A DNA stretch of 64,000 nucleotides. Origin: Scenedesmus sp. PABB004 (taxonomy: Eukaryota). The notes beneath the pieces are model-generated. The model was not told the DNA's origin, did not search any database, and was given only the letters and a program-made list of their open reading frames with translations. The stretch lies in contig JABVCE010000028.1 of the NCBI GenBank assembly GCA_014905635.1, positions 124,001 to 188,000 of the forward strand, in the 5' to 3' direction. A program made the position numbers and the translations under genes. Positions 537 to 62,282 of the stretch are shown here, piece by piece. The stretch's first letter is position 1. Each line of letters begins with the position of its first letter.

Positions 537-3500
537 ATGGCGGGCGGGGCGTCCGCCGGGACCGGGCGCCGTCTCGTCCTCGTCCTCGCGCTGCTGGGCG
601 CCTGGGCCCTGGCGGGGGCGCGCTGCGGGCCGTGCGCGCCGCGGGGCGGTGGCCGAGCGCCCTGGTCGCTCGCGCTGGGCGGCGAGAACTGCACCCTCGC
701 GCTGGGGCCCGACGCTGCGGGCGCACACCAGCAGGCGCTGGAGCTGGAGGGCCCCGGCGTCGTGACCCTGGCCGGCGATGGCGCCTTCGCAGGTCAGCAG
801 CGCCCAGCCTGGCGCGCGGCAGGGGCTGCCCGGGGCGCGGGAGCGACGGCCGGGCGCCCGGCCGGTGGCGCAGGCACGGGGGCGCCGATCGCTGCGGCGG
901 CACGGCCCGCACGCGCCGACGCGGCCGCGCGGCGGCGCCGCCGCTGCCCGCGCGCGCCGCGCAGGGCTCGGCGCCGCCAGCCTGCGCGACGTGGTGCTGG
1001 TCAGCGAGCGCTTCCCCACGACCGCGCTGAGCGTCGCGGACCTGCTGTGGCCGCCGCTGCTCGCGGCGCGCGGCGCGGCGCGCGTGAACATGACCAACGT
1101 CCAGGTCGTCTACCGCCTGCCGCCCGGCGCCGCGGCCGGCGCGGTCGCCGCGCTGCGCGGCGTCGTGAGCGACCCCGTCACGCAGCAGGCCGTGGCCAGC
1201 TGGGCCCTCAACCTCTACACGGTGCGCGCGCGGGCCGCGCCGCGGCCAGCCGCGCCGGGGGCCGCGCGAGCCCCGCGCCGGCGGCGCCGCCCCGCCCGCG
1301 CGGCGGCGCGGCGGCGACCCCGCCGGCCCCGCCGGCCCCGGCGCGCGCCGCGCAGGACTACTCGAGCTTTGCCTACGTGGCCGCGCTGAGCAGCGAGGGC
1401 CTGGCCTGCCGCGGCTGCGGCGTGTTCCTGGAGTTTGGCGGCGCGCCGCCGGGCCCGACGGCCAGCCCCAACGGCGGCGCGCCGGGCGTCAACTACGCGC
1501 TGGGCGTGACGCAGGCGGGCTTTGGCGACCTGCTCTCGCGCTACGCGACGCTCGAGAGCGCGCGGCCCTTCCTCGTGCTCCTCGGCAGCAACGTCACCTG
1601 GGGCGGCGCGCCGCTCGCGCTCGGCCGGCCGCTCGTGCTCGTCGGCCAGGCGGGGCGGCTGACGAGCGTGGACCTGGGCATGCGGGCCAACCAGGTCTCG
1701 CTCGCCGCGGCGCACGCCAACCTGACCATGGACGGCCTCGTCGTTGAAAACCTGGGCTACGGCGACCGCCAGAGCGGCAACCTGCTCAGCGGGCTGAGCC
1801 TGGTCAACACGTTCAACCTCTGGTTCTTCCTATGGGACAGGCGAGGCGCACGCGCGCGCGCGCGGGCCGTGCCGTGCCATCCCGGCGCTGCGCCGCCGCG
1901 CGCCTTGCCGCGCGCAGCGGCGGCGCCCACGCACCGTCCTCGCCGCCGCGCCGGGCGCGCCGCGCAGGTCGGACGTGCGGCTGGTGAGCCACAACGTGAC
2001 GCACGTCGCGGCGCGGCAGGCGGAGGTGGACTATCTCAGCTACTGGGCGGTCATGTTTGGCGCGACAGACCCGGTGCTCGCGGCAGAGGCGGCCTGGCTC
2101 AAGCGCGGCCCCGGCATCACGCTGTGGGAGGTGCGCCGCGGCGCGGCGCGCGCGGAGCGCGGGCGAGCGCCGCGCCGCGCCGCGCCGCGCCGCGCGCCCG
2201 GCGCCGCGCCCGACGCCGCGCCGCCCCGCCGCGCGGCGCCCGCGCAGGCCGTGCTGATCAGCGCCGACCTGTTTGACGTGCGCTTTGCGTCGCGCAGCGC
2301 GACCGCGAGCAACACCTGGCGCAGCGCGCGGCGCCGCGTCGCGTCGCCGGTGGCGCAGCGGCTGTCAGACCCGGAGCTCTACGCCGCGCCGCTCAAGGTG
2401 CACGCCGCCGCGCCGCTCGCCGCGCTGGCGAGCAGCAACGCGTCGCTGCAGGTGCGGCGCCGTGCGCGCAGACGCAGCGCGGCGCGGTCAGCGGCGCGGT
2501 CGCCCCGCCGCCCGCGCCTGCCCGTGCTCGCCGCGCGCGGGCGCCCGCGCCGCGCCCAGCTGTGCCGCCGCCGCGGCCCGCCGCGCCGCCGCAGGCCGTG
2601 CTGTCACAGCTGTCGGGCCTGCCGCGCGACGGCCTGGCGGTCGTCATGGCGCCCGCGCTCGGGCTCGGCCCCGACGGCTCTGGCGCGTGGCCGCCGCCGG
2701 GCGGCGTGGTGCTCAAGGCGCCGCGCACGACAGTGGTCGGGTACAGCGTGTGCCAGAGCCTCGGCGCCAACTTCTCGCTGCCGGGCGGTGCGCCGGCGGG
2801 CCCCGCGCTCGTGGGGCCGGGCGGCCCCGGCGGCGGCGACGCAGTCGAGGCGGCCGGCCCGCTGCCGCAAGAGGCGCTGCTGCAGGGCCTGCCCGGCGGC
2901 GACGCGAGCGCCGTGCGCGCGACGTGCGACAGCAACGGCAACGGCAACGGCGGCGCGTCGGCGGCCGCGCCCGAGCAGGGGCTGCAGCGGCTGGCGCACT
3001 CGGCGATGCTGGACCTGGGCGGCGCCCGGGGCCTGGTGCGCCTGGCGCCGGCGGGGCCGAGCGGGAAGCTGGAGCTGGGCAGCCTCACGCTCGCGGGGCT
3101 GGCGCAGGGCCCTGCGGTCGTGCTGGCGGCCGTGCGCGGCCGGCGGCGCGCGCGGGCGCTGCTGGGCGGCGGCGCCGGCGGCGGCCGGCGCGGCGCGCGC
3201 TGGGCGGGGCGGCGGCTGCTGGCCAGTGAGCAGCAGATGGCGGCGGACGCGGCGTCCGCGGGCCTCACGCAGGCCTCGCCGGACGTGTGGACGCACCTGG
3301 TGTGGGCGGTCGAGCGCGGCGCCGCAGCACCGCCCCCCGGAGCCAATGCGTCGGCCGGGGAGCTGGTGTTGACAAACGTGCAGCTGCTGCTGCCGCCGCC
3401 GGAGTTTGCGCGCCTGCTGGCGGCCAGCAGGGCCGCGCCAGGCGGCGCGTTCACGCTCGAGCTGTCGGGTGCGGCGTGGCGCGGGGGCGCGCGCGGCAGC

Positions 3501-6500
3501 CCGCGCTGCAGACGGCGCCCGCGGCGGTCGCCTGCGCGCCGCGGCCCGCCCCACGCGCCCACGCCCACGCCCGGCCCGCCCGCCGCCCGCCCGCGCACCG
3601 CGCCCGCAGACCCCGGCGGCGCCGCGCCGCCGCCGCCGCTGCGCGCGACGGCGTCGCGCCTGGTGGACGACTGCTGCCTGCTGGTTTCCAACTACAGCGC
3701 ACCCGGCCTCACCGCGAGCGAGCTGCTGCTGGTGGCCGACCCCGACGAGGCGCGGGCGATGCCGCCGGGCTATCTGTGGCCCTTTGACGGCACCGAGCGC
3801 CAGGGCGAGCTCGTGCCGCGGGCGCAGCGGCGCGGCGCCAGCGCGCTGGGCCCCGCCGCGGTGGCGGGCGTGGTGATCGGCGCGGTGCTCGGCGCGGCGC
3901 TGCTCGCGGCGCTGGTGCTGCTGCTGGTGCGGCGGCGGCAGCGGCGGCGGCGGCACGCCGGCGCGAGCGCCGCGGGTGCCAAGGCGCTGCCGCCGGGGGT
4001 GCGCCCCGGCGGCGCGCTCGGCGGCGGCTGCGACGCGGAGCGGCAGCCCGACAAGCAGCACAGCAGCGACGCGAGCAGCGAGCTGCAGCACAGCTTGGCG
4101 GCGCCGGGGTCGTCGTCCGGCGCGGCGCACAGCAGCGGCGACCGCGGCGGCGGCGGGGGCGGGGGCGTGCTGAGCGACAAGCGGTGGCTCAAGCTGACTA
4201 GCGCGATCAGCGGCAAGGTCCAGGACATCCACACCAACCGACTAAAGTCGGCGCTGCTGGAGTCGCAGGCTGCCGGGGCGCCGGGGGGCGCGCCGTCGCT
4301 CGCGGGCGCGCCGCCGCCGCGTGACGGCTCGCCGGCCGGGTCGACCGCCGGTGCGGAGGCCGACGACGGCGGCGGCGGCGGCGGCGGCGGCGCACCCCCG
4401 CACGGCGGCGACGCCGCCGCCGGCGGCGCGGGGCCGGGCGGCAACGTGCTGCAGCTCAAAGAGATCATCGGCCAGGGCAGCTTTGGCACCGTCTACAGGC
4501 GCGGCCCACGCCGCCGGGGGCAGCGCGGAGCGGCCCGCGCGGCGCTGGGGGCGCCGCTGCTACCGCGCACGGTGGGTGCGCGCGAAACTGCCGCCCGCCG
4601 CGCCGCGCCGCGCCGCGCCGCGCAGGGCGACGTGGCAGGGCGTCAACGTGGCGGTCAAGCTGCTGCAGCTCCCGCCGGGCGCGTGCGCGCACGCGCTGAC
4701 CGCGGCGTCGATCGACGCGAGCAGCTGGGACGGCGGCGGCGGCACCTCCGCGCTCGCGAGCGCCGTGACCGCGTCCGCGCGCGGCGGCACGCGCACGCGG
4801 CTGGACGGCCTGCTGAAGCAGGAGCACATGGCCGTCCAGGCGCGGCCGCCGCCCGCGCCGCGCGGCCGCAGGCCCACGTGGCCGCCCGCCCCCGCACGCC
4901 CCCGCTCACCCCGCTCACCCCGCCGCGGGCGCGCAGGAGGCGGCGATCGGCAGCACGATGGTGCACCCCAACATCGTGAGCGTCTACTCCATCGCGCTGC
5001 GCCCCGCGGCCTCCGCGGCGGCGGCGGGCATTGCCGCGCCGGCCGGCGCCGCCGACGGCAGCGGCGTGCTGCTGCTCGACGCGCCGGCGCCGGCGCCGCC
5101 CGGCGGCAGCCGCGCCGGCGCGAGCACCTCGCTGGCGGCGCCGAGCACGGCGGGCGCGCCGGAGCTGCTGCCGTGGGAGATGCAGCTGGTGCTGGAGTAC
5201 TGCGACCAGGGCACGCTGCGGCAGGCGCTGGACGCGGGGCTGCTGGTGCACCGCGGCAGCGGGCTGCACCACCTGCCCACGGTGCTGTCGCTCGCGCACA
5301 ACGTCGGCTGCGCGATGACCTACCTGCACCAGGCGCGCGCCCCGCCCGCCGCGGCTGACCTCGCCGCCACGCGCTGCACTCGCGCCGCCGCCGCGGGCCC
5401 GCCGGCGCGCGCCGACCCGCGAACCCGCGACGCCCGCCCCGCCCGCCGGGCTGCTCCTCCTGCGCAGGAGCACATCATCCACGGCGACCTCAAGGCCTCC
5501 AACGTGCTGCTCAAGACCTCCATCCCCTCGCTCATCACCAGCACGAGCGCCAACGCGAGCCTGCCCAGCGGCGCGAGCGCCGGCGGCGCCGCGCCCGGCT
5601 CGGGCGGCGCGCCGGGCGACGGCGCGGTGCCGGCGAGCCACGGCATCCTCGGCCAGGCCGCCGCCGCGGCGGAGGAGACCAACAGCGGCATGCACTGCCT
5701 GCTCAAGGGCGGCTGGGTGGTCGCAAAGGTCTCCGATTTTGGCCTCTCCCTCTGCGTCGACCCGGGGGAGACCCACGTCTCGAGCGTGCACGCGGTGCGC
5801 ATGCGTGTGTGTGCGTGTGCGTGTGCGTGTGCACCCGCGCGACGGCGCGCGCGCGCGCGGCGCGGCGGCTGAGGCGGTGCTCGCGCGGGTCGGCGGCTGA
5901 CGCGCCCGCCGCCGCGTCCGCGTCCGCCGCTGGGTCCGCAGGGCACGCTCACGCACATGGCGCCGGAGCTGCTCATGCAGGGGCGCTGCAGCAGGGCGAG
6001 CGACGTGTACTCGTTCGGGATTCTGGTCTGGGAGCTCGCCACGGGCGGCAAGGCGTTTGCAGGCGCGCGCGCGCGCGCGCGCACGCCCGCGGGGCGGAGC
6101 GGGCGCGGCGGCAGCAGGGCGGCCAGCTGCGGCGCCCGTGCTGGCGGAGCGCGTTGGCGGCGCCGCGCCGAGCGCCGAGCGCCGCGCGCCACCCCGCGCG
6201 CGCGCAGGCATCCCGAAGCCGCTGCTGGGCCACTGCATCGTCAGCCAGCAGATGCGGCCGTGCTGGCCGGCGGCGCTGCAGGCGCATGCCGCGTGGGCGG
6301 GGCTGCTGCGCCTGGCGGAGGCGTGCTGGAGCCAGGACCCGCAAGCACGGTGAGGGGGCCCGCGGCGCTGCCGCGAGCGGCAGGGCGGCGCGCCACGGCG
6401 CCGACCTGCGGCGGCGGCGCCTGCGCGCGCCTGCGTCCACGCTCACGCTCACGCCCCGCCGCCGCGCCGCGCCGGGCCGCGCCGCCCAGGCCCACGTTTG

Positions 6501-10700: not shown

Positions 10701-13700
10701 TGACGCCGTCCAGCACGCACTGCCGCGCCGCGGCGCTCGCCGACGGCTCCGCCAGCGCCTGCCGCGCCGCGTCGAGCAGGCAGCGCGACAGGCCCGCGTC
10801 GACGCCGGCGCCAAACGCCGCGCCGCCGCCGCCGGCCGCGGCGGCGCCCGCGAGCAGGCGCGCGTGGAGGCCCTGCAGCACGGTCACGAGGCAGCCGGCA
10901 CGCAGCTGCGCGGCGCCGCCGTCCTCGCCGGGCGCGGGCCCCGCCACACTCGCCGCGGCCGCGAAGCTGCGGAGCGCCGCACCGCACACCGCGGTCAGGG
11001 GCTGCAGCGCGGCGGCGGGCCCCCTGGCTCCGCCCGGCGCCCGGGCGCTCGCGGCGCTCGTGGCCGCCAGCTCCCGCGCCAGCGCCGCAGCCGCCGCCGC
11101 GCACTCGCCCGCCAGGCGCCGCTGGGCGTCGGCGCCTGCGGCCGGGCCCCCGCCCCCGGCGCCCGCGGCGGCGGCCACGCCGTCGCCGAGCAGCTGCGCC
11201 AGCAGCTGCTGCCCGCTCGCCGCCGCGTCGGCGCCGCCGCCGGCTTCGCCCCCGGCGCTCGCTCGCGCGGCCGCCGCGGCCACCGCCGCCGCCGCTGCCG
11301 CCGGCGCGACGCCGCACACGCCGCCGACGCGCAGCACGCCGCTGCCGATCAGGCCGCCGGCCTCGCTCTCGCCGCCGTCGGCGCCGCCGCCGGCCTTGGC
11401 CGCCGCGGCGCTGCCGTAGTGCGCGGCGGCCGCGGTGAGCTGAACAATCAGCCAGTGCCGCGCCCCGTTGGCGCCCACGCCCGGCCCCGGCGCCGCGGCG
11501 CCGCCGCCGGGGCCGCCGAGCCCTGCCGGCAGGCCGGCGGGCGGCGCGTCCGCGCCGCCGGCGCGCGCCTGCAGCCCCTCCCACCAGCTCTTCACGCACG
11601 GCGTGTTGAAGCGCCCCGCCGTGAGCCGGCCCGCGGCGGCGATGCACGCGCCCAGGTGCGGCCGCGCACGCAGCGCAACGCGCGCCAGCTGCTCCGCGAG
11701 GCGGTGCGCCGCGGCCGCGTCCTGCGGGCCACCCGCGCCGCCTGCGCCGCCCGGCTTGTGCGGCGGCTGCGCGCCCGGCTGCCCGCCGGCCGCCGCCGCC
11801 GCCGCAGGCGGCATTGCCCAGCCGACACACGTCTCCAGCAGCAGCGGCATGAGGCCGGCCGCCGCGATGACATCCTGCAGCCCCTCCAGCAGCGCCAGCA
11901 CGCAGCCCACCGGCACGGCCGCGCCGCCGCCACCGCTGCCGCCGGCGCCCGCCGCCTCGCCGCGCCCGTCGCCGCTGCGCCGCGCCACGCGCTCGCCCGG
12001 CTGCGCAGGCGGGTGCGGCGCGGGGACCTTGAAGCCGCCGGCGCCCTGCTGGGCCTGGCCGGAGAGGCCCTGGGACGCTGCGTGCACGGCGGCCTTGACG
12101 TGCCGGTCCAGCAGCTGCAGCAGCAGCACGACCGCGTCCCCCGCCGCGTCCGCCGCCACGAGCAGCGCCACGAGGCGCTGCAGCCACAGCCCCGCGCACG
12201 GCCCCGCCAGCCACGCCCGCGCGGTGAGGGCCGGCCCTGCCGCCTGGCCTGGCGGCGCGTCGGCCGCTGCGCCGGCCGGCGCCAGCCCCAGCCCCAGCGC
12301 CGTCGCGCCCGCGCACGCGAGCTGCTGCGCCAGCACCGCCCGCTCCCAGGGCCGCAGGCCCGCCGCCGCAGCCTGCAGCCCGGCCGGCTGCAGCCGCTGC
12401 GGGGCTGGCCGCCGCGCTGGTGGCGGCGACGCTGCGCCGTTGGCAAGCGCGCCGTCCTGGGCCCCTCCTGCATGCGCGTCCCAGCAGCTGCCGCCGCCAC
12501 GGCGCACCAGCGGCGCCGCGCTGCCGTCCGCAGCGGCGTCGCTCGCCGCCGCGCCGAGGCCGAGCCACGAAAACGCAGCTGCCTGCACCTCCTGCAGCCG
12601 CGGGGCGTGGCCGGCCTCGCCGCCCGCCTCGGCGGTGCCCGCCTCGGCACCAGCGCCGGCGGCCGCGCCGAGGGCTGCGCCGCTGGCTGAGAGCCGGCGC
12701 CGCTTGGCGGGCGACGGCGGCTCGAACCCCAGCGGCAGCGCCCGCTCGCCGTCCTGCGCCGCCGCGGCCGCCACGTCCAGCATGGCCCGCCGGCCGGCGG
12801 CGTACGCCTGCCGCGCCGGCGGCCGCCGCGGCCGCCGGCAGCCGCTGTCGCGTCCGGCTAGCGTGTGGCCTGGCGCCGCGGCGGCACATGAACTGCACGT
12901 GAACTGCAGCGCCAGCAGCGCCGCGGGCCGCGCCTTGCTCGCCCAGCACTGCCCCAGCAGGCTGCAGACAGAGGTGTAGTGGCCGTCACCGCCGGCGCCG
13001 GCGCCGTCGGCGCCCCTGAGCTTCGCCCTGCCGCCGGCGCCCGCGCGCGCCTTGCCCACGCCTGCGCCCGCGTCGCGGCGTTCGGGCGCCTGCGCGGCGG
13101 CGGCGCCGCCGCCGCCGACTGCCGCGACGGCCTGGCCTCGCGACGCGCCGGCGGCGCGTGCTCCGGCGCGCCGCCGTCGGCCGCCGCGGCGCCCTCGAAC
13201 CACGGCAGCTGCGGGTGCAGGTGGCGCAGCATGCGCCGGTGGCGCGCGCTCGCCGCCGCCGCGTCGGCGCCCGCCGCAGCGGACGGGCGCAGCAGCGCCC
13301 GCGCGGCGAGGCCTGCAAGGTACGCCGGCGGCGCAAACAGGCCGCACTCAGACAGCGCGATCACGAGCGCCGCGGCGGCGCGCGGCGCGGGGCCGCCGCG
13401 CCCGCCGCCGCGCGGGTCGCCCGCCGTCGCGGCGGCGCTGCTGTTGGTGTGGTTGCTGAGCTCGCCAGCGAACCACGCAGCGATGAAGGGCTGCAGCGCG
13501 AGCGCGGCGCCACCGCCGCCGCCGCCCGCGCGCCGCCCGCGGCGCCGTGCGGCGCAGGCGCCGCGCCCGCGCCGCCCGCCTTGCCGCCCGCGGTGCCGCC
13601 CGCCTGCGGCCTGGCCGGCCCCGCCTTGGCCTGCTGCTGCAGCTGCGGCGCCTTGCCGTGCTGCGACGCCGGCGGCGCCTTGCGCGCCGCGCCCGCCGCG

Positions 13701-21010: not shown

Positions 21011-22469
21011 ATGATGCGGCCGCTCGCGCCGCGCGGCCCCGGCCGCAGTTCGCAGCAGGCGTACCGGACGCCGAGCAGCTCGTGCGACACGCGCCGACCA
21101 TGGCGCGCCAGCGGCGGCCGCAACAGCCGCGGCGCGGCGCGCGCCGGCAGCAGCGCTGCTGCCGGCGGCGACGGCCCCGCCCCAGCGGGCGCTGGCAGCC
21201 CGGTCGTGGTGCGCGTTGACGGACTCGTGGTGGATCCGGCCTTTCGGTCGACGCCATGGCACGCGGAGCAGCAGCTGCAGGCGCAGCAGCAGGACGGCGC
21301 CGGGCGCAAGGTGCGGCCTGGCGTGGGCGGCGCCGGCGCGCCGCCGGGCGGTGGCCGCCCTGGCAAGCCTGCAGCGCGCCGGCGGCCGGCCGCCGCCGAC
21401 GCCCACCGCCGCCGTCGCAGGCGCTCATCATGTTTGTGAGTGAGAGCGGCATCGCGCGCGCGCCGCTCGCGGCCGCCCTGTTTGCAAAGCAGCTCGCGGC
21501 CAGCCCCCTTGCGGGCTGGGTCGACGCGGCGCCGCGGGTGCGCGCGCCGCGCGCCGCGCCGCGCCCCCGCGCCGCGGCGCCCGCCGCGCCGCCCGCCGCG
21601 CCGCCCGCCGCGCCCTGCAGCAGACGGCCCACGCCGCCGCCGCCCCCGGCCGGCCGCAGGCCACGCGCGACTACTGCCTCGGCCAGCCGCCGCACCCCGC
21701 CGCCGTGGCGGCCGCCGCGGCGCTGGGCACGCCACTGGACAGCACGGCCGGCGCCGGCGGCGCACTGCGCTTTGAGCCGGCGGCCGACATCGTGGCCGCC
21801 GACCTGGTGCTGGTGTTTGACAAGTACACGGCGGCCGACGTGCTGCGCGAGGCGCGGCGCACGCGGCGCGCGGGGACCAGGCACGTGCCAAGCCGGCCGC
21901 GCCGCCGCGCCCCCGCCGCGACGTCCCCGCCCGGCTCGCCCGGCGTGCGCAGGTGTCGTCGTACGACCTCATCAACCCAGGCGGCCACTACAGCGCCCGC
22001 GTGCGCCTCCTGGGCAGCTTCCACCCGCGCCTCGCCACCAAGGCGGGCCAGGCCGACGCGCAGGCGCGCGCGCGCCGCGCCGCCGCGCCGCCGCGTGGCG
22101 GCCCGCGCGCCGCCGCGCCGGCGCGCGCGTCGCGACAACGCGCCCCGCTGGCGCCCGTCGCAGGACCTGGACGACGCCCTGTACGGCAACGTGGGCGGGC
22201 AGGCGGAGGCCGACGCGGTGCTCGCGTGCGCGGGGCTGGTCGCGGAGGCGACCGCGGGGCTGGTCGGCCAGCTCGAGGCGCTCGCGGCGGCCGAGGGCCT
22301 GCTGCCGGCGGGCGGCGGCGGCGGCGCAGCTGGCGGGGGCGACGATGTCGGCGCGGCGGCGCGGCTGCGCGAAGCGCTCGTGTTGCGCGTGCGCTCGGAG
22401 GGCGTGATCAGCTGGCTGGTGCCCCCGATGCTGCAGGGCAGCACCACCGACCTGGGCGGCTGGGTGTGA
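21011..22469 (+). CDS. Low-molecular-weight phosphotyrosine phosphatase-like protein, probably organelle-targeted and catalytically inactive
   Basis: R/S-rich transit-like N-terminus; P-loop position IMFVSESGIARAPLAAALF; ADLVLVFDK; RVRLLGSF; DLDDALYG. Introns 21311-21420, 21538-21659, 21852-21952 (GC) and 22064-22163 (GC). Confidence 0.75.
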
Positions 22470-26774: not shown

Positions 26775-27571
26775 ATGCGCAAGGAGCAGCCCTGGTGGAC
26801 CGCCTTCCACACCGCCAGGTTCGCACGCTGCGCACCGCGCACGCCCAACCGCAGCGCGCGCCGGCACGGTGCGCATCGCCAACCGCCGCTGCTGCCGCGC
26901 CGCTGCCGCTGCCCTGCCGCAGCCACCCTGGCTATGTCACGCTGGTGGACCCGCCCACGCTGCCGGGGCTCTACGACCAGCCGCAGGGCCGCTACCGCGT
27001 CAAGGCGCGCCGCCCGCTGCTGCGCCTGCCGCCGTCGCAGCGCCGCGCTGCGCCGCGCGGCGCCGCGCCGCGCGAGCGCCGCGCGAGCGCGCCCGATTCC
27101 GCCGCCGCGCGGCGGCCGCGCAGACGCTGCTGCTGGACGACGTGCTGGACCCGAGCGGCTACGCGGAGGGCAACGCGCCGGCGCAGTTTGAGGTGACGGA
27201 GGGCTCCTTCGTGCTCATGCTGCCATCGGGTGCGGCGCCGCCAGTGCCGCGGCCCTCCCGCGCTGCGCCGCCGGCCAGCCCACGCCCCCGCCGCCGGCCA
27301 GCCCACGCCGCCGCGGCCCACGCCGCCGCGGCCCGCGCCGCCGCCGCCGCGCGCAGCGTCGGACCCGGGCGCGCAGCTCGTGGCGCCGCCGTGGCTGTGC
27401 CGCGTGACCAGCATCTGGTTCCTCCCAGGCCACGCGCCGCCCGGCGACGCGTCCGACGCGCCGTTTGCGACGCCGCGCGGCACCAGCCGCGAGGTCGTCG
27501 CCTGGGAGCGCGCACAGCTTGAGTGCGGGCGCCTGCCGGCGGCGCACTTCAAGCTGCAGGCGCGTCGCCCG

Positions 27572-27610
<39 letters not shown>

Positions 27611-37400: not shown

Positions 37401-39031
37401 CCTTGAGCGTCGCCACGACCTGCGCCCCCGCGTGTGCGCGCGGCCGTGGCGCGTCGGCGCCGCCCTGCCACCTCTGAGGCCGCCGCCGCCGCGCGCCCGG
37501 GGCCGCCGCCGCCGCCGCCGCCGCCGCGCAGCGCAGCGCCCGCGCCGCGCCGTGCCCCCCGCGCCGCGCCGCGCCGCGCCTTCTCTGCCTGGAAGGAGTC
37601 CAGGCCGGTGGTGGGCTCGTCGAGGAAGATGAGCGAGGGGCTGCTGATGAGCTCGCAGCCGATGGCGAGGCGCTTCTTCTCGCCGCCTGCGAGTGCCGCG
37701 GCGGGCGGGCGCGGGCGGGCGGGACCGTGCGCGAGTGGGTGGGTGGGAGCGCGCGAGTGAGGGAGGGAGCGAAGGCAGGCAGGGCGCAGGCGCTGAGGGC
37801 GCGGGCGGCGGGGCGCGGCGCGCACCTGACAGGCCCCGGACCTTCTCGTCGCCCACGCGCGTCCCGCGCGACTGCGGCGGCGCGGCGTGGCGCGCGCGCG
37901 GGCCGTGTGAGCGCGCGCCGCCCCCACCGCCCCCGCCGCCGCCGCACCGGGGCTCGCGCCGCCGCACCTTTGCGAGGCCCAGCACGCTGATCAGGCCGTC
38001 CACCACCGCGCCGCGCGCGTCCTCCGGCAGGCTCTGCCGCAGCTGCAGCGCGCCCGCCATGCCCAGGGTCTCTGCACGGCGCGCGGGCGGCGCGGCGGCG
38101 GGCGCGCCATGAGCGGGGCGGGCACCAGGCACAGAGTGACAAAGCAACACAAAACGTTAACGCACCGTCGACCGTGAGCATCGAGTAGAAGTTGTCGCTC
38201 TGCTCGACGTACGCCTGGCGGTGGTTGCTGTCGGACGAGGGCACGCCGTTGACGTACAGCCCCCCTGCGCGGCGGCGGCACGCGATGGCGGTGCCCGGAC
38301 GGTGGGCGCGGGCGCGGCCCCGCTGGGCGCGCGGCGCGGCTGACGCGGCGCGGCGCGGCGCGCCGCGGGCCGCACCGGTGAGCCTCATGCCGGTGCCCGC
38401 GGGCACGTGGTTGGCCATCGCGTTCAAGAGCGTGGTCTTGCCGCTGCCACTGGGCCCCATGAGTGCCAGCAGCCTGGGCGGCGCGCGGGGGCGCGCGGCG
38501 GCGTGGGCGCGGGGCGGCGTGGGCGCGCGCGGCGGCGACGCGGCGGCGGCGGCGGCGCGGGGCGCGGCGCGCGCACCTGCCCGGCCGCGCCGCGCCGGAG
38601 AGGCCAAACAGGATCTGCTTCGCCCCGCCGCTGGCGGGGGCGCCGTCGGACGTGAGCTGCTGCTTCTTCTTTTTCTTGGGCGCCCAGTGGCAGCTCAGGC
38701 CCTCCCACTCGAGCGTCACGGGCGGCACCTGCGGCGGCGCGGCCGGCGGTCAGCGGCGGGCGCCGTGCGCGACCCCCGCCGGCGGGTCCGCGCGGCGGCG
38801 CTGCGAGCGCGCGCGCTCGCTTGCCTTGGCGCCGGGCGTGGGCGTCGCCGCGCGCAGCATCGCGGCGTCGCCGCCGCCCTCCTCCTCCACCGTGGGCGCC
38901 GCGGGCTCGCCGCCCCGCGCCAGGCGCCGCCGCAGCGCGCCGGCGCCCTTGACCGCGCCGATGCCCGCCAGCAGCGCCAGGTTGCCCTGGGGCGCCACCA
39001 GCACCGCCGCGCCGAGCAGAAAGTCCAGCAT
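34498..39031 (-). CDS. ABC transporter G family half transporter, ABCG7-like (many introns)
   Basis: [107 protein letters not shown]. Confidence 0.92.
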
Positions 39032-42021: not shown

Positions 42022-45000
42022 TCACTTGGGCGCGATCATGTCCTCCGGCCGCACCCACGCGTCAAACTCCTCGCTCGACAGCAGCCCCAGCGCCATGGCC
42101 GCCTGCTTGAGCGTCGTGCCCTCCTTGTGCGCCTTCTTGGCCGCCGCGGCTGCGAGCGCGGCGGCGGCGGCACGCGCGTCGCGCGCGTCGTCGCGCGCCC
42201 GCCCGCCCCGCCCGGGCTGGCAGCACGGGCCCGGAGCATGCGCAGCGCGTGCCCAGCGGCGCGCGGGGCGCACCCGCGTTGTCGTAGCCGATCTTGGGGT
42301 TGAGCGCCGTGACCAGCATGAGGCTCTCGTGCAGCAGCTGGTCGATGCGCCCGCGGTTGGCCCTGGCAGCGGCGGCGGTCAGGGGCGCGGCGGCGGTGCG
42401 GCGACGGCGCGGCGGCGGTCAGCTGCGCGGCGCCGGAGCACGCGCGGCAGGCGGGGCGTGCGAGGGAGGAGGTGCGAGGGAGCGGGAGGGGCGGGGCTGT
42501 CGGGGCGGCGGCGGGCGCGCCGCGAGCGCGCCGCGCCGCGCGGGGGCGGGGCCGCCCCCGCACGGCGTGGCGCGGCCGCCCCGCCGCGCGGCGCCGCCGG
42601 GCGCCTCGTGGGGCCCCGGGGCGCGCGCGCGGCGCGTGGGTCGCTCTCGGCGCCGTAAAATACCAAACTCAGCTGGGGGCTCCGCGGTTTGGGGAACGAA
42701 GGCGCCGCACGTGCTGCGCGCTGTGCGTGCCGCGCCGCGCCGCGCCGCGCTGCGCCGCGCCGCGCCGCGCCGCGGGACGCACTGGATGCCGACCACGCAG
42801 TTGGCGGCGAACGACCCCGCCGCGTCGCCGAGCAGGCGCGTGGACTGCAGCAGGCTCGCGCCCATCATGGGCTTGAAGACGTTCAGCTCAAAGTGGCCGT
42901 TGCTGCCCGCGATGCTCAGCCCAGCGTTGTTGCCCATCACCTGGAACACCAGCGCCGAGCGGCGGCGGTGAGGGCGGCGGAGACGAGCGACAGCGGCGGC
43001 GAGGCGACAGCGGCGGTGAGAGCGGCGCCCGCGCCGCAGGCGGCAGCGGCGGCGCGGCGGCGCCGCAGCAGGCACAGCGGCGCGGCGCGGCGCGCCTGCG
43101 CGGCGACCATGGTGAGCGCCTCGCACTGCGTGGGGTTGACCTTGCCCGGCATGATGCTCGACCCGGGCTCGTTCTCGGGCAGCAGCAGCTCGCCCAGCCC
43201 GCACCTGCGCGCGGTGGGCGCGGAGGCCGCGGGTCTCGCGCCGCGCGCGGCGGGGGAGCGCTGCGCACGGCGGGCGAGGCCCCGCCAAGGGGCGCGTGCG
43301 CGTGCGCGGGCGGCGGCGGCGGCGCCGCACCGCGGGCCGGAGCCGAGGAGGCGCACGTCGTTGGCGACCTTCATAAGGCTGACGGCGAGGACGTTGAGCG
43401 CGCCGCTCACCTCGACGAGGCTGTCGTGCGCGGCGAGCGCCTCAAACTTGTTGGGCGCCGTCACAAACGGCAGCCCCGTGTCGGCCGCGACCTGCGGCGG
43501 GGTCGGTCGGTCGGGCGCCGCGTGGGGGTCGGCGCGCCGCGTGGCTGCTGCTGCGCCGCTGCTCGGCGGCCTGGCCCGGCGTAAGGCCGCGCGGCGCGCG
43601 GGCGGCGCGCGCGGCGCGCGCCTGCGCCGCCACGGCGACGTCGAAGCCGGGCTTGGTGTTGAGCCCCGTGCCGACCGCGGTGCCGCCCTGGGCGAGGCGG
43701 TAGAGCGCGGGCAGCGCGGCGCGCACGCGGGCGATGCCGTACGCCACCTGCGACGCGGGCGGGCGGGCACGGGCTGGTCCGCAGCAGCGCGGCCGCGCAG
43801 CTGGGCGCGAGCGGCGCGCAGCACGTCGCGCCGCCGCGCCGCCGCCCTCCCGCCTTCCACCCTCCCCCAGGCGCGCCTGCTGGGCGTAGCCGCCAAACTC
43901 CTGGCCCAGCGTGAGCGGCGTCGCGTCCATGGTGTGCGTGCGGCCGATCTTAATGATGCTCGAAAACTCGGCGGCCTTCCCCGCCAGCGCCGCCTGCGCG
44001 CGGCGACGTGAGCGGCGCCGCCGCCGTCGTCGGCGTCGGCGTCGGCGTCGGCGGCAGCGGCTGGCGGTGCTGGTGCGGCGCGCGGCGCGCGGCGGCGCGC
44101 GGCGGCGGGCGCACGTGGAGCTCCTCGAGCTGCGGCAGCAGCACCGCGTGCGCCTCGGTCGCGGCGGCGATGTGCATGACGCTCGGGAAGGTGTCGTTGC
44201 TGGACTGGCCCTTGTTGACGTGGTCGTTGGGGTGCACCAGCTTGCTGCCCAGCTCCCCGCCGAGCAGCTCGATCGCCCTGCCGTGGGCGTGGGTGAGGCG
44301 GCGCGCGCATGCCGGACCCCTCTCTCGCCCCTCCCTCGCCCCTCGCGGCGCCGCCGGCTGGACGCCCCCGCGCCCGCGCCGCCCGCGCCGCCTGCACGCC
44401 GCGCGGCGCGCCTGTTGGCGATGACCTCGTTGGCGTTCATGTTGCTCTGTGTGCCGCTGCCGGTCTGCCAGATGACGAGGGGGAAGTGGTCGTCGAGCTT
44501 CCCCGCCGCGACCTCGCCCGCCGCCGACACGATCGCGGACCCGATCTTGGGGTCGAGCCCGCCCGACGCCATGTTCACCTGGCGCACGGCGGCCGGACGC
44601 GCTGGGCCGGGGCGGGGCGGGGGCGCGGGGCGCGCGGGCGGGCGCGGCGAGCGCGGGGCGCGCGCACCTTGGCGGCGGCGCCCTTGAGCACGCCAAACGC
44701 GCGGATGATCGGCTCCGGCATGCGCTCGCGCGGGCCGCCGATCTTGAAGTTCTGCAGCGACCGCTGCGTCTGGGCGCCCCAGTACCTGCGCCGCCGGCGC
44801 GGCGGCGCGTCGGCGCGGCGCGGCGGACGGGCGCGCAGCAGCGCGCGCCCCCGATCGTCGCCCCCGGCGCGCACTTGTCGGCGGGCACCTCCAGCGCGCC
44901 CATGGTGTCCTTCTCCACGCGGACGCCCGGGCTGGAGAAGGCGCGCGTGCCTGCGCCGGGCGCGGGGGCGTGAGAGGCCGGCCGCCGCTGCTGCACGGCG

Positions 45001-45693: not shown

Positions 45694-45770
<77 letters not shown>

Positions 45771-55280: not shown

Positions 55281-55590
55281 ACCACCACCACCACACCCAC
55301 ACACACACACACCCACACACACACGCACCCACACCCAGCCACAAACACCCACCCACCCACACACACACGCACCACCACACCCACACGCTCACCTGGAAGA
55401 GCACGTATCCGGTCGCGAGCTCCGCGAGGATGCAGCCGAGGCTCCACAGGTCGACCTTCTGCCCGTAGCCGAGGCCCAGGATGACCTCGGGCGCGCGGTA
55501 GCTGCGCGACTGCACGTAGCTGGAGAGGTGGTCGGTGATGAAGCAGGAGCTGCCCAGGTCGATGACCTTCACCTCACACCTGTGTGTGTG

Positions 55591-55637
<47 letters not shown>

Positions 55638-58600
55638 GGTGGGGTGGGGGGGGGCACAACAGTGCAGTGACCACAGAGAGACCGCAGAGGGGTGCATGGG
55701 TGGGGCAGGCGGGCGGGCGGGCGGGCGAGTGCGGGTGAGTGCGGGTGCGGCGGGCGAGGCGAGGGGGAGCGCCGCGCGCGGGGCGCGGCGCGGCGGGCGC
55801 GGCCACGCCCTGCTCCTTGCTGCTGCCTGCTGCCGCCGCCGCCGCGCGTGCGGTCCGCGCGCATGGCGGCCGCGCCTGCTGTAGCTTTTGATGAGGATGT
55901 TCTCTGGCTTGAGGTCGCTGTGCACCAGGCCCAGGCTGTGCAGGAACGCGAGCGCGCGCAGCACCTGCGGCGCACCCAAGCCGGCGGCGGCGGCGCGGGG
56001 AGGTGTCACGTCGGCGCGCGGCAGGGCCGGGCTGCGGCCGCCCCACACGCCAAGCCGCGCCCCCGCGCCCCGCCGCCCCCGCCGCCCCGCTGCGCCGCGC
56101 CGCGCCGCGCCGGCGACCTGCGCCGCGATGCGCTGGATGCGTGGCGGCGTGAAGTAGGGCTCGTCGCCGTTCTCGCGCTGGTACTTTTGGAACTCGTACA
56201 GGTTGGCCCGCAGCAGCTCGCACACCAGGAACAGGTGCTCCTGGCGCGCGCGCGGCGGCGGAGGCGGCGCCGACGGGGCGAGGGACGGGGCGAGGGACGG
56301 GGCGAGGGGGGCGTGGGCGGGGCGCGCCGTCGCGCCGGCCCCTCTCGGCGCCGCGGCGTCCCCGCTGCGCCCCGCCGTGCGGGGCCGCTCAGGCCGCCGC
56401 CACCCTCACCCAGCCCTACGCCCCTGCACCCCTCAACGAGGGTTTTGCAAGCCCCTAAACCCTCAGCCCTAAGCCCCTAAACCCCTGAAGCAGCGGCCCA
56501 CCTTGTAGTAGAAAAAGTCGTAGAGACGCACGATGTGCTGCTCGTCGTCGGGGTCGCTGCCGTTGACGTAGCGCAGCAGCTTGATCTCGTCCAGGCTCTG
56601 GTCAAAGTAGTCCTGCGCAGGGGGACGCGGGGGTGTGGGGTGCGCATGTGTGTTGGTGTGTGTGGGTGCGTGGGCGTGTGTGGGGCGGGTGGAGGAAGGG
56701 GAGCAGACGAGAGGAGAGGCGCAGCGCGCGGGCGCAGCCCACAGCGCGCGGCGCGCGGCGCGGCGCGGCGCGCGGGCTCCCGCCCGCCCTCGCCCCCGCA
56801 CCTTGTTGTTCTTGATGATTTTGAGGCAGACCAGCGCGCCCGTCGCGGTGTCGAGCGCCTGCACCGCCTGGCTGAACGCGGCGCTGCCCAGGAAGTCCAT
56901 GACCTGAGTGCCCAGGAGGGAGGGGGGGGCAAGGGGGCGTCGGGCGCGGCGCGGCGCGGCGCGGCGCCGCCGCACACGCGCCGCCGCCGGGCCGCGCACG
57001 CGACGCGCCCTCTTCCCCTCTCTCCCCTCTCTTCCCCACCCCCACACCCCACACACCCACCACGCGCGCACCTGGTATCGCCCCGCGATGAGGTCGTTCT
57101 TGCGGATGGGAAACTCCTTGCTGTCCTCAAAGCCGGTGCGCCGGCGGCGGTGGATCACGCGCAGGTCAAACGTCTCGTACCTGTGCGCACCGGCACGCGC
57201 GGCGCGGCGGGTGCGGGTCGGGGCGCGGCGGGCGGCGGGCGGCGCGGCGCGCCCCCTCTGCCGCGCCGCCCCGCGCCGCCGCGCCGCCGCCGCCGCCGCC
57301 GCGCCGCGGCGCCGCGCACCACTGCTCCACGTACGCCGCGTCGTACTCATACAGCAGATTGCCCTCGCCGTCCACCACGTACCGCGGCGCGGGCAGCTCG
57401 CCAGACCCGGCGTAGCCCCCCGTGCCCGTAGAGGCGAGCTCGGCGTCGCCGCCGGGCCCGGCCGCGCCGCCGGGCTCGCCGGCAAAGCGCGGCGGCAGGG
57501 CGTCGGGGCCGGCGCCGTCGGGCGCGCCGCGCGGCGCGGAGCCGGCGCCCGACGCGCTGCCGCCGCGGGCGCCGGCGCCGGCGGGCGCGGCCGCGTCGGA
57601 CGCCGCGGCCGAGCCGGCCAGGCCGGGCGGCCGCGGCGGCGTCCCGCCCTGGCTGCCGGCCTTGAGCCGGCTGCTGCCGCCGCTGCTGCAGCCGGGCGCG
57701 CGGCTGCCGCCCGCGCCGGAGCTGCTCGGCGGCCGGCTGCCGGCGCGGCTGCTGCCGCCAGTCGACGCGTCGCGCAGGCCCACCGCCGCGGCGGGGCTGA
57801 ACGGGGTGGCCGGGCTCACCGGCGCCGCCAGCACGACGCACCCGCCCGCGCCGCCGTCGTCGCCGGCCGCGCCCGCGGCGCCGCCGCCGGCCGCGCTGCC
57901 GCTTCTGCTGCTGCCGCCGGTGCCGGGCGCCGCCGCCGCCGCCGCCTGCTGCGCCGGCGCCGCGGGCGGCACCGCCGCGGGCGTGGTCGGGAACTCCCAC
58001 GGCGACTCGCGCGCGTCGGCCGCGCCCGCGGCGCCCTCGCCCGAGCCGCCGCGGCTGACCACGAGCGGCGGCTTGCTGGTCACGGCGTCGCCTGCGGCGC
58101 GGCGGCGGCAGCGGGCCTCAGTGGGCAGGCGCCGCCGCAGGCGCTGCGCGTGTGCGCGCCTCGCGGCAGCCGGCGCGCGCCCCGGCCCCGCGCGGCGCAC
58201 CCTCGTCGTCGGAGGCGCCGCCCTCGAGCCCCGAGCGGCTGTGGTTGCTCGCCCACGTGGAGAACACGCGCTCCGCGCGCTCCTCGTGCACCGCCGCGTC
58301 CACCGCGCTCGGCGGCGTGGTGGGGAAGCTGAAGCCCCCCAGCCCGCCGCCGCCACCCCCGCACGCGCCGCCGCCGCTGCTGCCGCTGCCGCCCGCCGGC
58401 GCCGCGACGGGCGGCAAGCCCGCGCCGGCTTGCTGCTGCTGCTGCTGCTGCTGCCGCTGCTGCTGCCCCTGTTCCCGGTCCTGCTGCTGCTGCAGCTGCT
58501 CCTGCTGCTCCTGCTGCTCCTGCGGCGGCGGCTCCGCCGCGAGCGGCTGCTCGCACGCCTGCTGCGCCGCCGGCGCCAGCTGCTGCTGGGCTGCCGGCGC

Positions 58601-58757: not shown

Positions 58758-58790
<33 letters not shown>

Positions 58791-60422: not shown

Positions 60423-62282
60423 TCAGTCGCCGCTGCGGCGGCCGGCCGCGGGGCGCGCCAGCCGCGCGGCCGGCGCGTCCCCGGCGCGCGCGAAGCAAAA
60501 CCCGGCCGCCGCGAGGTCGTGCCCGAACGAACCCGGGCACGCGTGCGTGCCGGCGTCGTACAGCCGCCCACCCCGCATCTCCTGCCAGCCCCAGACGGCC
60601 GAGAACATGAGCTGCGCGGTGCTGTCGCACCAGAAACTCGTCCACTTGGCTGACCAGTCCCACCAGCCGCGCGGCGCGTGGGCCTCGCCGCAGAGCGCCT
60701 TCATGTTGGCCAGCATCCGGCGGTCGCACTCGCGCCGCCCCTGCCTGCGCGGGACGCGCGGCGGCGGCGGCGGGGCGCAGCGACGCGCGCGGTCGGGCGG
60801 CGGCCGCGCCCCTGGCGCAGGCCGCGCCGCGCCGCGCCGCGTCGGAGCGCGCCGGAGCGCGCGCCTGCCGCTCAGCCCGAGCTTCCAGGCGCAGGCGTAG
60901 CAAACGTCGTGGGCATTGCAGCACGGCGTCAGCAGCTCCTGGAACTGCAGGCCGCGCTCAAGCGTGCCCGGCACGCTGCAGCCGTCGGCGTACCAGGCGC
61001 CGCCGCACGCCTCGGGCACCGCCAGCGTGCGCACCGGACCCTGTCCGCCGTCGACCACTGTCACCGTGCAGGCGGTCTGCGGCTCGGGCGCGCTGGGCGC
61101 CGCGGGGCCCCCGCCCGGCCCCGCCGCCTGCTGCCGCCGCTGCTGCGACTGCCCCCGCCGCCCTGCCCCGCGTGGCCGGCCCCCCGGCGCAGCGGCGCCG
61201 CCGCTGGGCGCGCCCGCCGGGGGCCGCTGGGCGCTGCTGCGGCCAGCTGCTGCCGCTCCGGAACGACCAGCGCCCCCGCGTGCCGGCGGCGCCGGCTCGC
61301 CGCCGCCCCCCGAGCTCCCTGACCTGGCCCTGCTGCCGCCACCGCCGCCGCCGCCGCCGCCGCCACTGCGCGCAGCCGCCGCACTGGCGGCGCCCGTCAG
61401 GCCAGGCGGCTCGCGCCCGGCGGGCCTGCTGCGCCTGCGACTGGGCCTGAGGCGCGCCGCCGACCGCGCGTCGGCGGCCGCGACCGCGACTGCGGCGCTG
61501 CTCGCGTTGGCGCTGGCCGCCGCGCTGCCCGCGCAGACGCCCACCAGCAGCTGACCCGGCGCCAGGAGTCGGCCGGGCGTGAGCGCTGCACGGGGGTTGC
61601 ACGCAGCGAGGGCGTGCGCGGCCAGCGCCGCCGGCGCGCCCGGGCTGGCCGCCGCCGCCGCCTGCAGCCAGCTATGGGGCGCGCCCTCGACCGCCACGCC
61701 CGGCCCGCACCCGCACAGCGCCGACGGTGGCGGCCCGCCCGCCGCCGCCGCGACGCCGACCGGGGGTGCGTCAGCGTCGCTGCCCGGCGCCTGCAGCTGG
61801 AGCAGGGGCTGGAACACGGGCAGCGCGAGGCGCAGGCCCGGCGGCAGCGCCGCGTCGCCGCGCGGGAACCCCGGGTTGACGCGCCGCGCTGCCGCGTTGC
61901 AGAGCGCGACGAGCGCCCACTGCGGCTCCCAGGGGACGCCGGGGTACGCCGCCGCCATGAGCGCCGCCGCCGTGTCGCCGGGCGCGGTCGTGTGCGTGGA
62001 CGCGACCGCGGCGCACTGGTCGCGCCAGAGCTCGCCGGCGCCTCCTGGCGAGGGGTGCGCGTGAGCGGGTGGATGGTGGGCCGCTGGTGGGGGCGGCCAA
62101 GCAGAGCTGCGAGCGGCGGCGCGCCTGGCGCGGCGCTGCTGCCAGCCGCAGTTGGCGGCGGCGAGCTGCTACCGCGCCGCACCGCTCTGCGCCGCTCGCA
62201 TCGCGGTGGTGGTCGCCATGAGCATGACGAACTGCAGGGCGCCCAGCGGGCGCCCCGGTGGCGCACACGCAGAGCAGCGCAT
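60423..62282 (-). CDS. Secreted protein: two LysM-like repeats, low-complexity linker and secretory phospholipase A2 domain
   Basis: Exon 1 MRCSACAPPGRPLGALQFVMLMATTTAMRAAQS. LysM-like segments HTTAPGDTAAALMAAAY...VNPGFPRGDAALPPGLRLALP and ...LAACNPRAALTPGRLLAPGQLL. PLA2 segment DGCSVP...LTPCCNAHDVCYAC...RRECDRRMLANMKALC...C...A.LMFSAV. GC-AG intron 60745-60864. Confidence 0.75.

Follow-up and report, generated by a model that had tools for sequence, protein, structure and literature searches.

Frequent GC-AG introns, placed after exonic AG, in a 64-kb window of 80% G+C from an apparently chlorophycean alga

In animals, fungi and plants, U2-type GC-AG introns account for about 1% of introns and form a 5' splice-site profile class of their own (PMC7072748, PMC3033335). 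Fractions of 39.6% in Aureococcus anophagefferens, 22.2% in Micromonas pusilla and 7.7% in Chlorella sp. were reported by Iwata and Gotoh (2011, PMC3033335), who attributed the abundant GC-AG introns to G+C content and termed their abundance in Aureococcus and M. pusilla an enigma. In the haptophyte Emiliania huxleyi, GC was found at 56% of 241 manually mapped junctions (GC/GT about 60/40), nine GC junctions were confirmed by RT-PCR and GT-biased gene models were mis-predicted (PMC4028052). For the pelagophytes Aureococcus and Pelagomonas, about 14-17% of introns are predicted to be GC-AG, against 0.32% in the low-G+C Aureoumbra (bioRxiv 10.1101/2024.10.30.620910). The rarity implied by the initial annotation of the DNA analysed here was not borne out, as abundant GC-AG introns had been described in 2011; the expansion is already known in GC-rich algae and the present locus adds another case. 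No report of GC-AG introns for chlorophycean (Sphaeropleales-like) algae was found in the green-algal literature searched.

The DNA analysed is a single stretch of 64 kb, called the window throughout. Its G+C content is 80% (75-83% in each 4-kb bin) and it holds intron-rich eukaryotic genes with 10-17 or more introns each. T makes up only 5-8% of the bases within introns. The acceptors lack a pyrimidine tract, T has nearly gone from the introns and donor position +4 is C. The best named homologues of the window proteins come from Sphaeropleales green algae; the closest database proteins are about 50-60% identical, with no identical or near-identical match. From these comparisons the source appears to be the nuclear genome of a chlorophycean (Sphaeropleales-like) green alga.

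The window shares with Aureococcus, Micromonas and Chlorella a high G+C content, a GC-AG fraction at least ten-fold above about 1% and a canonical AG acceptor. Two of those three species are green algae, as the source appears to be, but their G+C content is 66-70% and not 80% (PMC3033335). The strict dependence on an exonic AG is a feature of the window and is not stated in the sections of that paper drawn on here. As in E. huxleyi, GC takes the place of GT at the donor and the AG acceptor is kept, which is ascribed there to genome G+C; unlike in that haptophyte, where GC is the majority donor, GC is a minority donor in the window (about 15-21%), found only after AG (PMC4028052). The pelagophyte fraction is similar to that of the window and tracks G+C between relatives, but pelagophytes are stramenopiles with 0.1-0.9 introns per gene (bioRxiv 10.1101/2024.10.30.620910). 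Ordinary U2-type GC-AG introns, which are spliced by the major spliceosome, have the same termini; the frequency in the window is 10-20 times higher and the consensus is GCGCG instead of one containing A/T (PMC7072748, PMC3033335).

Twenty GC donors had been proposed in the initial annotation, all after an exon-terminal AG and mostly reading AG/GCGCG (the slash marks the exon-intron boundary). AG/GC was found on the correct strand at all 20 positions and AG/GCGCG at 18, the exceptions being 1841 (GCGAG) and 25765 (GCACG). By itself AG/GC is unremarkable, because the two strands of the window hold 765 such sites and 21% of all dinucleotides are GC. Junctions were placed using a profile-to-genome spliced aligner in which all 16 donor dinucleotides were allowed at equal cost and the acceptor was restricted to AG. 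In the fumarase and ABCG transporter genes, 27 introns were placed (20 GT, 7 GC and no other donor). The seven GC donors coincided exactly with proposed sites and each was the unique optimum; forcing GT cost 22-48 units or was impossible. All seven unconstrained non-GT junctions in these two full genes were thus GC and all seven followed AG (backgrounds 21% and 4.7%). Seven further sites outside the two genes were verified by the aligner test or by exact continuity of Pfam coordinates. The claim that GC donors restore conserved proteins was upheld at 14 of the 20 sites, where GC...AG is the only such junction; with any other, the strongly conserved protein acquires one or more gaps or the exact Pfam continuity is lost. 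One more site was supported, five had ab initio support and none was refuted. All coordinates are given in the table.

GC-AG introns of the window. 'Best GT' is the score of the best GT junction relative to the optimum; 'gain' is the single-site ab initio gain.
Feature	Positions	Strand	Donor	Evidence
Candidate GC-AG intron, kinase gene, N-terminal part	1841..1967	+	cag/GCGAGG	ab initio only: gain 10.4, parse
GC-AG intron, kinase subdomains I/II	4499..4625	+		unique homology optimum, any dinucleotide allowed; best GT -39.2
GC-AG intron, kinase gene	4840..4936	+		unique homology optimum; best GT -15.2
GC-AG intron before kinase catalytic loop	5333..5467	+		homology optimum; best GT -33.9
GC-AG intron, kinase C-lobe	6063..6207	+		unique homology optimum; best GT -22.2
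GC-AG intron, LMW phosphotyrosine-phosphatase-like gene	21852..21952	+		unique optimum, any dinucleotide allowed; best GT -21.0
GC-AG intron, LMW phosphotyrosine-phosphatase-like gene	22064..22163	+		unique optimum; no in-frame GT alternative
Candidate GC-AG intron, GT10 fucosyltransferase gene	25179..25332	+		ab initio gain 13.8
GC-AG intron, fucosyltransferase	25765..25870	+	aag/GCACGC	exact Pfam continuity; gain 21.0
Candidate GC-AG intron, unnamed gene	27005..27123	+		ab initio only: gain 15.1
Candidate GC-AG intron, unnamed gene	27560..27714	+		ab initio only: gain 11.9; no in-frame GT within 60 nt
GC-AG intron, ABCG7-like transporter	36173..36298	-		unique optimum, any dinucleotide allowed; no GT alternative
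GC-AG intron, ABCG7-like transporter	37227..37356	-		unique optimum; best GT -48.1
GC-AG intron, ABCG7-like transporter	37420..37579	-		unique optimum; no GT alternative
GC-AG intron, class II fumarase	42941..43095	-		unique optimum; best GT -28.4
GC-AG intron, class II fumarase	43492..43621	-		unique optimum; best GT -21.8
GC-AG intron, class II fumarase	43748..43876	-		unique optimum; best GT -24.0
GC-AG intron, class II fumarase	44278..44411	-		unique optimum; best GT -41.4
Probable GC-AG intron, DYRK-type kinase	55580..55875	-		highest single-site gain, 25.1; no in-frame GT within 60 nt
Candidate GC-AG intron, PLA2G12-like gene	60745..60864	-		ab initio only: gain 13.2
Extra candidate GC-AG intron, N-terminal ABCG	38729..38824	-	caag/GCAAGC	gain 21.1; outside the initial list
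Extra candidate GC-AG intron, Med12-like gene	12808..12933	-	caag/GCGCGG	ab initio only: gain 13.7; outside the initial list

The verified sites span five genes between 4.5 and 44 kb of the window; the other sites on the initial list belong to another five genes, up to 61 kb. Across the junction at 5333, the PK_Tyr_Ser-Thr profile was matched at 76-120 and then, from residue 2, at 122-137, which is contiguous; this intron has 135 nt, is in frame and is stop-free. At 25765, Glyco_transf_10 was matched at 58-76 up to the last residue of the exon and at 77-140 from the first residue of the next. The human fumarase alignment ends at the exon end adjoining donor 43621. The ab initio gain at the verified site 21852 was just 5.7. 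The exons flanking the 55875 intron matched Pkinase at 107-132 and 136-198, and the downstream exon matched DYRK2 with E = 7e-21. This second kinase gene (54-56 kb) was too divergent for the kinase-domain profile, which gave only a 30-residue local match, and a PDB search using the 29-residue exon upstream of 55875 returned generic kinases only, with no DYRK chain among the 60 matches listed. The GC donor at 55875 is probable, being supported but short of strict verification.

The five sites with ab initio support (1841, 25179, 27005, 27560 and 60864) had single-site gains of 10.4-15.1. A 205-residue exon precedes 25179, and its Glyco_tran_10_N match ends at residue 204. One in-frame, non-consensus GT, a possible alternative donor, lies downstream of 1841 (at +33) and of 25179 (at +21). 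Within 60 nt of 27005, in-frame GTs occur only upstream, inside the exon; the sole one for 60864 is 60 nt upstream, also inside the exon. As for the extra candidates, the acceptor of the ABCG intron directly precedes the first homology-aligned ABCG base (38728), and the Med12-like intron was used in the motif-restricted parse. Further GC 'introns' placed by the aligner at 19593, 20443, 21299, 4665, 5120 and 5509 fell in weakly conserved or low-complexity stretches, all without exonic AG, and were rejected. The non-consensus GC at 21299, preferred with four homologues over the consensus caag/GTGCGG at 21311, was considered a thin-profile artefact; 21311 and 5795 were counted as GT on consensus grounds. 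'Introns' of 45-96 nt in low-complexity kinase loops were made under every regime and left out of the intron count.

As proposed, GC donors occurred only after exonic AG (14 of 14 verified, against 9 of 24 GT donors; Fisher p = 1e-4). The verified GC donors had -2A, -1G, +4C and +5G in 14/14 and +3G in 13/14; the GT donors had +3G in 24/24, +4C in 20/24 and +5G in 24/24. Apart from +2, the GC donors therefore match the local GT-donor consensus (G+3, C+4, G+5). C was present at -3 in 11 of 14 GC donors. The first base of the 3' exon was G for 13/14 GC and 16/24 GT introns, which is only suggestive (p = 0.11). Ordinary GC-AG donors have a stronger flanking consensus, and a compensating one was found here as the exonic AG. 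Phase 0 was enriched among GC introns (11/14, against 9/24 for GT; p = 0.02), because of codon usage: third positions are almost always G or C, and an A at -2 would be most readily accommodated in the second position of a codon. About 46% of the AG-preceded consensus donors were GC (26, against 30 GT). Were +2C neutral in donors preceded by AG, GC should on base composition exceed this 26:30 ratio; either T is still under some selection or the donors are not yet at equilibrium. Two tandem paralogues (47156-45522 and 49734-48075) are 73% identical and have five donors in common, all of them GT in both copies. A metagenome scan with a fumarase exon gave 71% identity at the best of the best 80 loci. 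Only two of these 80 (L001 and L072, G+C 59% and 51%) looked intron-containing, and their intron positions differ.

A first ab initio parser, which fused genes and was biased towards one strand, was abandoned. The second parsed both strands jointly and recovered 9/10 and 14/17 verified junctions in cross-validation. Its free GT+GC count (80 GC among 181 introns) was discounted, since unseeded decoy dinucleotides also gathered 47-115 'introns', at comparable score gains. In a permutation control, AG/GCGCG was used as a donor at 22 of 74 sites against 37 of 493 for nine composition-matched motifs (p = 3.8e-7). Where no AG came before it, GCGCG showed no excess (3.2% against 2.5-5.8% for decoys). 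Single-site gains above 10 were obtained at 28 of 763 AG/GC sites against 15 of 2336 decoy sites, and most of the highest-gaining decoys lay within about 45 nt of an AG/GC donor.

GC-AG introns were 7 of the 27 in the two fully aligned genes (fumarase and ABCG), a fraction inflated because the homology-aligned genes were picked partly for holding claimed sites. The AG-restricted ab initio parse gave 26 GC and 95 GT consensus donors. With 14 verified among at most 163 parsed introns, the floor for this window is about 9%. The window-wide estimate of about 15-21%, which like its denominator is approximate because the free parser is too permissive, is consistent with the 'one in six' first suggested. 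All these figures cover one 64-kb window and may not represent the whole genome. On this sequence evidence, the GC-AG introns of the window are confirmed as real and far above the norm of about 1%; splicing at these coordinates we infer from protein conservation.

These are probably ordinary major-spliceosome (U2-type) introns with C for T at donor +2. Under extreme G+C pressure, T-to-C changes at +2 would keep arising, and +2C would persist only where the other contacts of the 5' splice site with U1, U5 and U6, chiefly -2A and -1G, with +1G and +5G, offset the lost +2 pair. Compensation through these contacts belongs to the general knowledge of 5' splice-site recognition. The initial account was similar, with strong exonic pairing to U1/U5 as the compensation and perhaps altered U1/U6 snRNAs; it is supported in part, the AG dependence and the shared consensus fitting T-to-C change under G+C pressure with compensation, and the contact mechanism itself is drawn from that general knowledge. 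An artefact, in which nearby GT or other sites are used, the introns are retained or +2C is an assembly error, is very improbable. In-frame GTs at 1841 and 25179 would allow it, as would the four of 20 intron lengths divisible by three, of which 5333-5467 could be read through; against it stand the gaps in conserved protein or broken Pfam continuity that other junctions cost at 14 sites, the restriction of unconstrained non-GT junctions to GC after AG, and the implausibility of twenty independent T-to-C assembly errors exactly at +2. Minor-spliceosome (U12-type) introns may have non-GT termini, and a GC-AG U12 intron is mentioned for Acanthamoeba, but no donor here resembles ATATCC/RTATCCTT; the donors read GCGCG[CG], as do the local U2-type GT donors except at +2, and this reading is extremely improbable.

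It is also unlikely, though conceivable, that this lineage has a modified spliceosome that tolerates +2C, with G+C pressure doing no more than populating the donors thereby allowed. Candidates for such a change are the 5' end of U1, the ACAGAGA box of U6, loop I of U5, some base modification or a protein of the U1 snRNP or Prp8 type; in the window itself, an Rfam scan found no snRNA gene (no family at gathering score). The GC share among AG-preceded consensus donors is far above that of most eukaryotes and the prevalent +4C is not a base that a standard U1 usually pairs with. For Aureococcus and M. pusilla, Iwata and Gotoh proposed base modifications or proteins of the U1 snRNP. The first 11 nt of the putative U1 are consensus in Aureococcus and both Micromonas, with GC-AG fractions from 2.7% to 40% (PMC3033335), which argues against the need for an altered U1. 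The strict AG requirement is, moreover, what an unaltered U1 would impose. That the genome-wide fraction is only a few per cent, exaggerated here by the window or the choice of genes, is quite unlikely. Only 64 kb were covered, with tested genes partly chosen for claimed sites and an ab initio tally inflated by parser flexibility; yet the verified sites are spread over five genes that no local G+C peculiarity marks, and the floor is still 9%.

The GC donors have practical consequences for annotation. As had been predicted, GT-only models mis-build these genes: the score fell by 116 units for fumarase and by 133 for ABCG, and in GT-only aligner runs exons were skipped or false GT sites were taken inside exons or introns. 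Any gene finder or spliced aligner restricted to GT donors will give wrong models for a large fraction of the organism's genes, and broken frames do not betray such models because stop codons are rare at 80% G+C (e.g. 5333-5467). The known correlation between G+C content and GC-AG introns is extended to an apparently chlorophycean alga and to a more extreme G+C content. GC occurring only after AG, with a near-even GC/GT split there, offers a conditional view of G+C pressure against splice-site recognition. With little confidence, the window may be considered to show splice-site recognition at a limit, +2 being free (C or T) strictly given -2A/-1G, in what is maybe the most G+C-rich intron-dense nuclear genome readable for donors. 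If this were true, and a lineage-specific change in U1, U5, U6 or an associated protein lay behind it, the alga would provide a natural system for finding which contacts are indispensable for donor choice.

At all 20 coordinates for which the initial annotation had proposed a GC donor, a check of the sequence found exon-AG/GC-intron on the proposed strand, and 18 of the 20 read AG/GCGCG. Sequence alone is no proof of splicing here because GC makes up 21% of all dinucleotides and AG/GC occurs 765 times over both strands of the window. Fourteen of the 20 sites were verified by homology alignment or Pfam continuity. At the level of sequence comparison, these are GC...AG junctions that depart from the local GT donors at +2 alone and that occur solely after an exonic AG. 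The observation of frequent GC-AG introns was confirmed.

Pfam fragments of eukaryotic genes were scattered across differing frames in the six-frame ORFs of the window and the codon-phase periodicity shifted every few hundred bases; the window is therefore an intron-dense eukaryotic nuclear region and not bacterial. G+C content was 75–83% in each 4-kb bin, and genes had 10–17 or more introns apiece. Pfam-matched genes included a class II fumarase, Beclin/Apg6, an ABCG transporter, a cyclophilin, protein kinases, a GT10 fucosyltransferase and Med12. The best named homologues for three genes were from Sphaeropleales green algae (Scenedesmus, Tetradesmus, Monoraphidium). The Tetradesmus obliquus homologues of the LMW-phosphatase-like and fumarase genes have neighbouring locus tags on one 4.8-Mb contig. 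These genes are neighbours in the window too, which suggests that their synteny is conserved with a scenedesmacean alga. A gene segment matching no Pfam family was duplicated in tandem, the copies being 73% identical along some 1.7 kb (exon columns 76%, intron columns 66%). They have five donor positions in common, each of them GT in both.

Junctions were placed with our own profile-to-genome spliced aligner (BLOSUM62 homologue profile, affine gaps, introns in three phases, AG acceptor). Three donor regimes were compared: GT only, GT + GC, and any of the 16 dinucleotides, all costed equally. The fumarase profile was built from 68 of the 120 homologues listed and that of the ABCG7-like transporter from 23 of 24. 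With any dinucleotide allowed, the fumarase optimum contained 10 introns (six GT, four GC), and the four GC donors were precisely those proposed. All 10 junctions were unique optima, each ahead of its runner-up by 11 units (one gap) or more, and forcing GT on the four GC introns cost 21.8–41.4 units. The transporter had 17 introns (14 GT, three GC), unchanged under the any-dinucleotide regime; its GC donors again coincided with the proposed sites. An in-frame GT alternative was absent for two of these three introns. One GT junction (35097) tied with a GC placement yielding the identical protein. Together, the two genes gave 27 introns: 20 GT, seven GC and no other dinucleotide. AG preceded 7/7 GC donors, versus a background AG frequency of 4.7%. 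One fumarase GT-AG intron was 420 nt long, about three times the median; no exon is missing in it, since the exons on either side adjoin each other in the homologue profile (residues 422 and 423).

Evidence for the other proposed sites is listed in the table. Homologues of the kinase gene were drawn from a representative-protein search, and the best GT alternatives in this gene were 15–39 units worse. Site 55875 gave the largest single-site gain (score units added in the ab initio exon/intron parse), and no in-frame GT lay within 60 nt. It was graded as supported, short of verified.

Coordinates of donors, introns and segments in the window
Feature	Coordinates	Strand	Evidence or remark
Fumarase GC donors	44411, 43876, 43621, 43095	–	Verified, spliced alignment
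ABCG7-like GC donors	37579, 37356, 36298	–	Verified, spliced alignment
LMW-phosphatase-like GC donors	21852, 22064	+	Verified; unique optima, any-dinucleotide regime included (profile of 4 homologues)
Kinase GC donors	5333, 6063	+	Verified (profile of 13 domain segments); at 5333, PK_Tyr_Ser-Thr profile to 120, then 122 from residue 2, contiguous (single-exon translations, Pfam)
Kinase GC donors	4499, 4840	+	Verified (profile of 29 N-terminal segments)
Glyco_transf_10 GC donor	25765	+	Verified; profile 58–76 and 77–140 exactly contiguous (single-exon translations, Pfam)
GC donor	55875	–	Supported; flanking exons match Pkinase 107–132 and 136–198, downstream exon DYRK2 (E = 7e-21)
Candidate GC donors	1841, 25179	+	Ab initio only; one in-frame, non-consensus GT downstream of each
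Candidate GC donors	27005, 27560	+	Ab initio only
Candidate GC donor	60864	–	Ab initio only
Additional candidate GC-AG intron	38729–38824	–	caag/GCAAGC, single-site gain 21.1
Other additional candidate GC donors	12933, 11568, 16822, 50049, cluster near 13579–13650		Ab initio parse/single-site gain
Spurious aligner GC 'introns'	19593, 20443, 21299, 4665, 5120, 5509		Thin profiles or low-complexity loops
Rejected parser GC donor	5792	+	Not after AG
Long fumarase GT-AG intron	42363–42782	–	
Kinase GC-AG intron	5333–5467	+	135 nt; ORF 4817–5869 runs through
LMW-phosphatase-like gene	21199–22469	+	OEZ86_008786
Fumarase gene	42025–44921	–	OEZ86_008774
Tandem segments	45522–47156, 48075–49734	–	

Candidates that had not been proposed initially were also obtained. 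The acceptor of one (38729–38824) lies directly before the first homology-aligned ABCG base. Six GC 'introns' of the aligner were rejected as spurious; AG preceded the donor in 0/6 of these versus 14/14 strong ones. The GC donor placed by the parser at 5792 has a consensus GTGCG donor 3 nt downstream (5795) in the same frame, which illustrates that gene finders permitting GC can over-call such donors.

The frequency of GC-AG introns was estimated with a self-trained exon/intron parser, which, when cross-validated, found 9/10 and 14/17 of the verified junctions. The count from the free GT + GC parse (80 GC donors in 181 introns) was discarded because unseeded decoy dinucleotides also gathered 47–115 'introns'. 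When one extra motif was added to GT donors, AG/GCGCG was used at 22/74 sites (gain +289); nine permutations of the GCGCG bases after AG were used at 37/493 sites (total gain +137; Fisher p = 3.8e-7). Without a preceding AG, GCGCG served as a donor at 3.2% of 2620 sites, inside the decoy range of 2.5–5.8%. Single-site additions gained >10 units at 28/763 AG/GC sites versus 15/2336 AG/CG, AG/GG and AG/CC sites. Eight of the ten top-gaining decoy sites shown lay within about 45 nt of an AG/GC donor also gaining >10, and therefore seem to take its place in one and the same GT-less intron. Among the 20 proposed sites, 19 gained >10 units; the exception, 21852 (5.7), was nevertheless verified by homology. 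With GC allowed only after AG, the parse contained 95 GT and 26 GC consensus (+3G/+5G) donors (21% GC), those preceded by AG splitting 30 GT : 26 GC. Removing the decoy rate (7.5% of 85 AG/GCG[CA]G sites, about six) left about 17% GC-AG, and the hard floor was 9% (14 verified among at most 163 parsed introns). The original estimate of about one in six is thus reasonable.

Verified GC donors were compared with 24 GT donors, 20 from the two fully aligned genes and four on partial evidence. Two of these four (21311 and 5795) were accepted by donor consensus over slightly better-scoring non-canonical placements. Verified introns were about 87% G+C, with T at only 5–8% of bases. Acceptors were GCGCAG or CCGCAG and a pyrimidine tract was absent.

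Features of verified GC donors and GT donors
Feature	GC donors	GT donors	Remark
–3C	11/14	13/24	
AG at –2/–1	14/14	9/24	p = 1e-4
+3G	13/14	24/24	
+4C	14/14	20/24	34/38 together
+5G	14/14	24/24	
Phase 0	11/14	9/24	p = 0.02
3′ exon first base G	13/14	16/24	p = 0.11, suggestive only
Median intron length	129 nt	123 nt	

Codon usage accounts for the phase-0 bias: with G or C at almost every third codon position, the second position offers the best place for –2A. Conversion of +2T to C under GC pressure, compensated by strong exonic pairing and perhaps accompanied by altered U1 or U6 snRNAs, had been put forward as the explanation. This interpretation was partly supported: GC donors were restricted to exons ending in AG (14/14). 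The GC-AG introns are probably U2-type introns with T-to-C at +2, a change that the strong G+C bias may favour and that would be tolerated only when flanking U1, U5 and U6 contacts, notably –2A/–1G, compensate. Among AG-preceded donors, GC was rarer than base composition predicts, which suggests residual selection for T at +2.

Surveys give about 98% or more GT-AG and about 1% GC-AG introns (PMC7072748; PMC3033335), with a GC-AG fraction of 7.7% in Chlorella sp.; for Aureococcus and the two Micromonas species examined there, the 5′ 11 nucleotides of U1 are reported to match the consensus exactly (PMC3033335). Pelagophytes are given about 14–17% GC-AG (bioRxiv 10.1101/2024.10.30.620910). For Emiliania huxleyi, about 56–60% GC donors, confirmed by RT-PCR, are described, and GT-biased gene models were mis-predicted (PMC4028052). 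A limited literature search on GC-AG introns in green algae, including Chlamydomonas, Scenedesmus and Micromonas, returned none described from the Chlorophyceae or Sphaeropleales. The phenomenon is already known from other organisms and the Scenedesmus sp. PABB004 window is a further case, with a G+C content well above the 64–70% quoted for GC-rich algae (PMC4028052; PMC3033335). Its chief importance is for the annotation of this genome and similar ones. The kinase intron starting at 5333 is in frame and stop-free; at such G+C content, reading frames survive retained or missed introns. The window is also a clean, extreme example of donor sites reshaped by G+C pressure within the limits of splice-site recognition.
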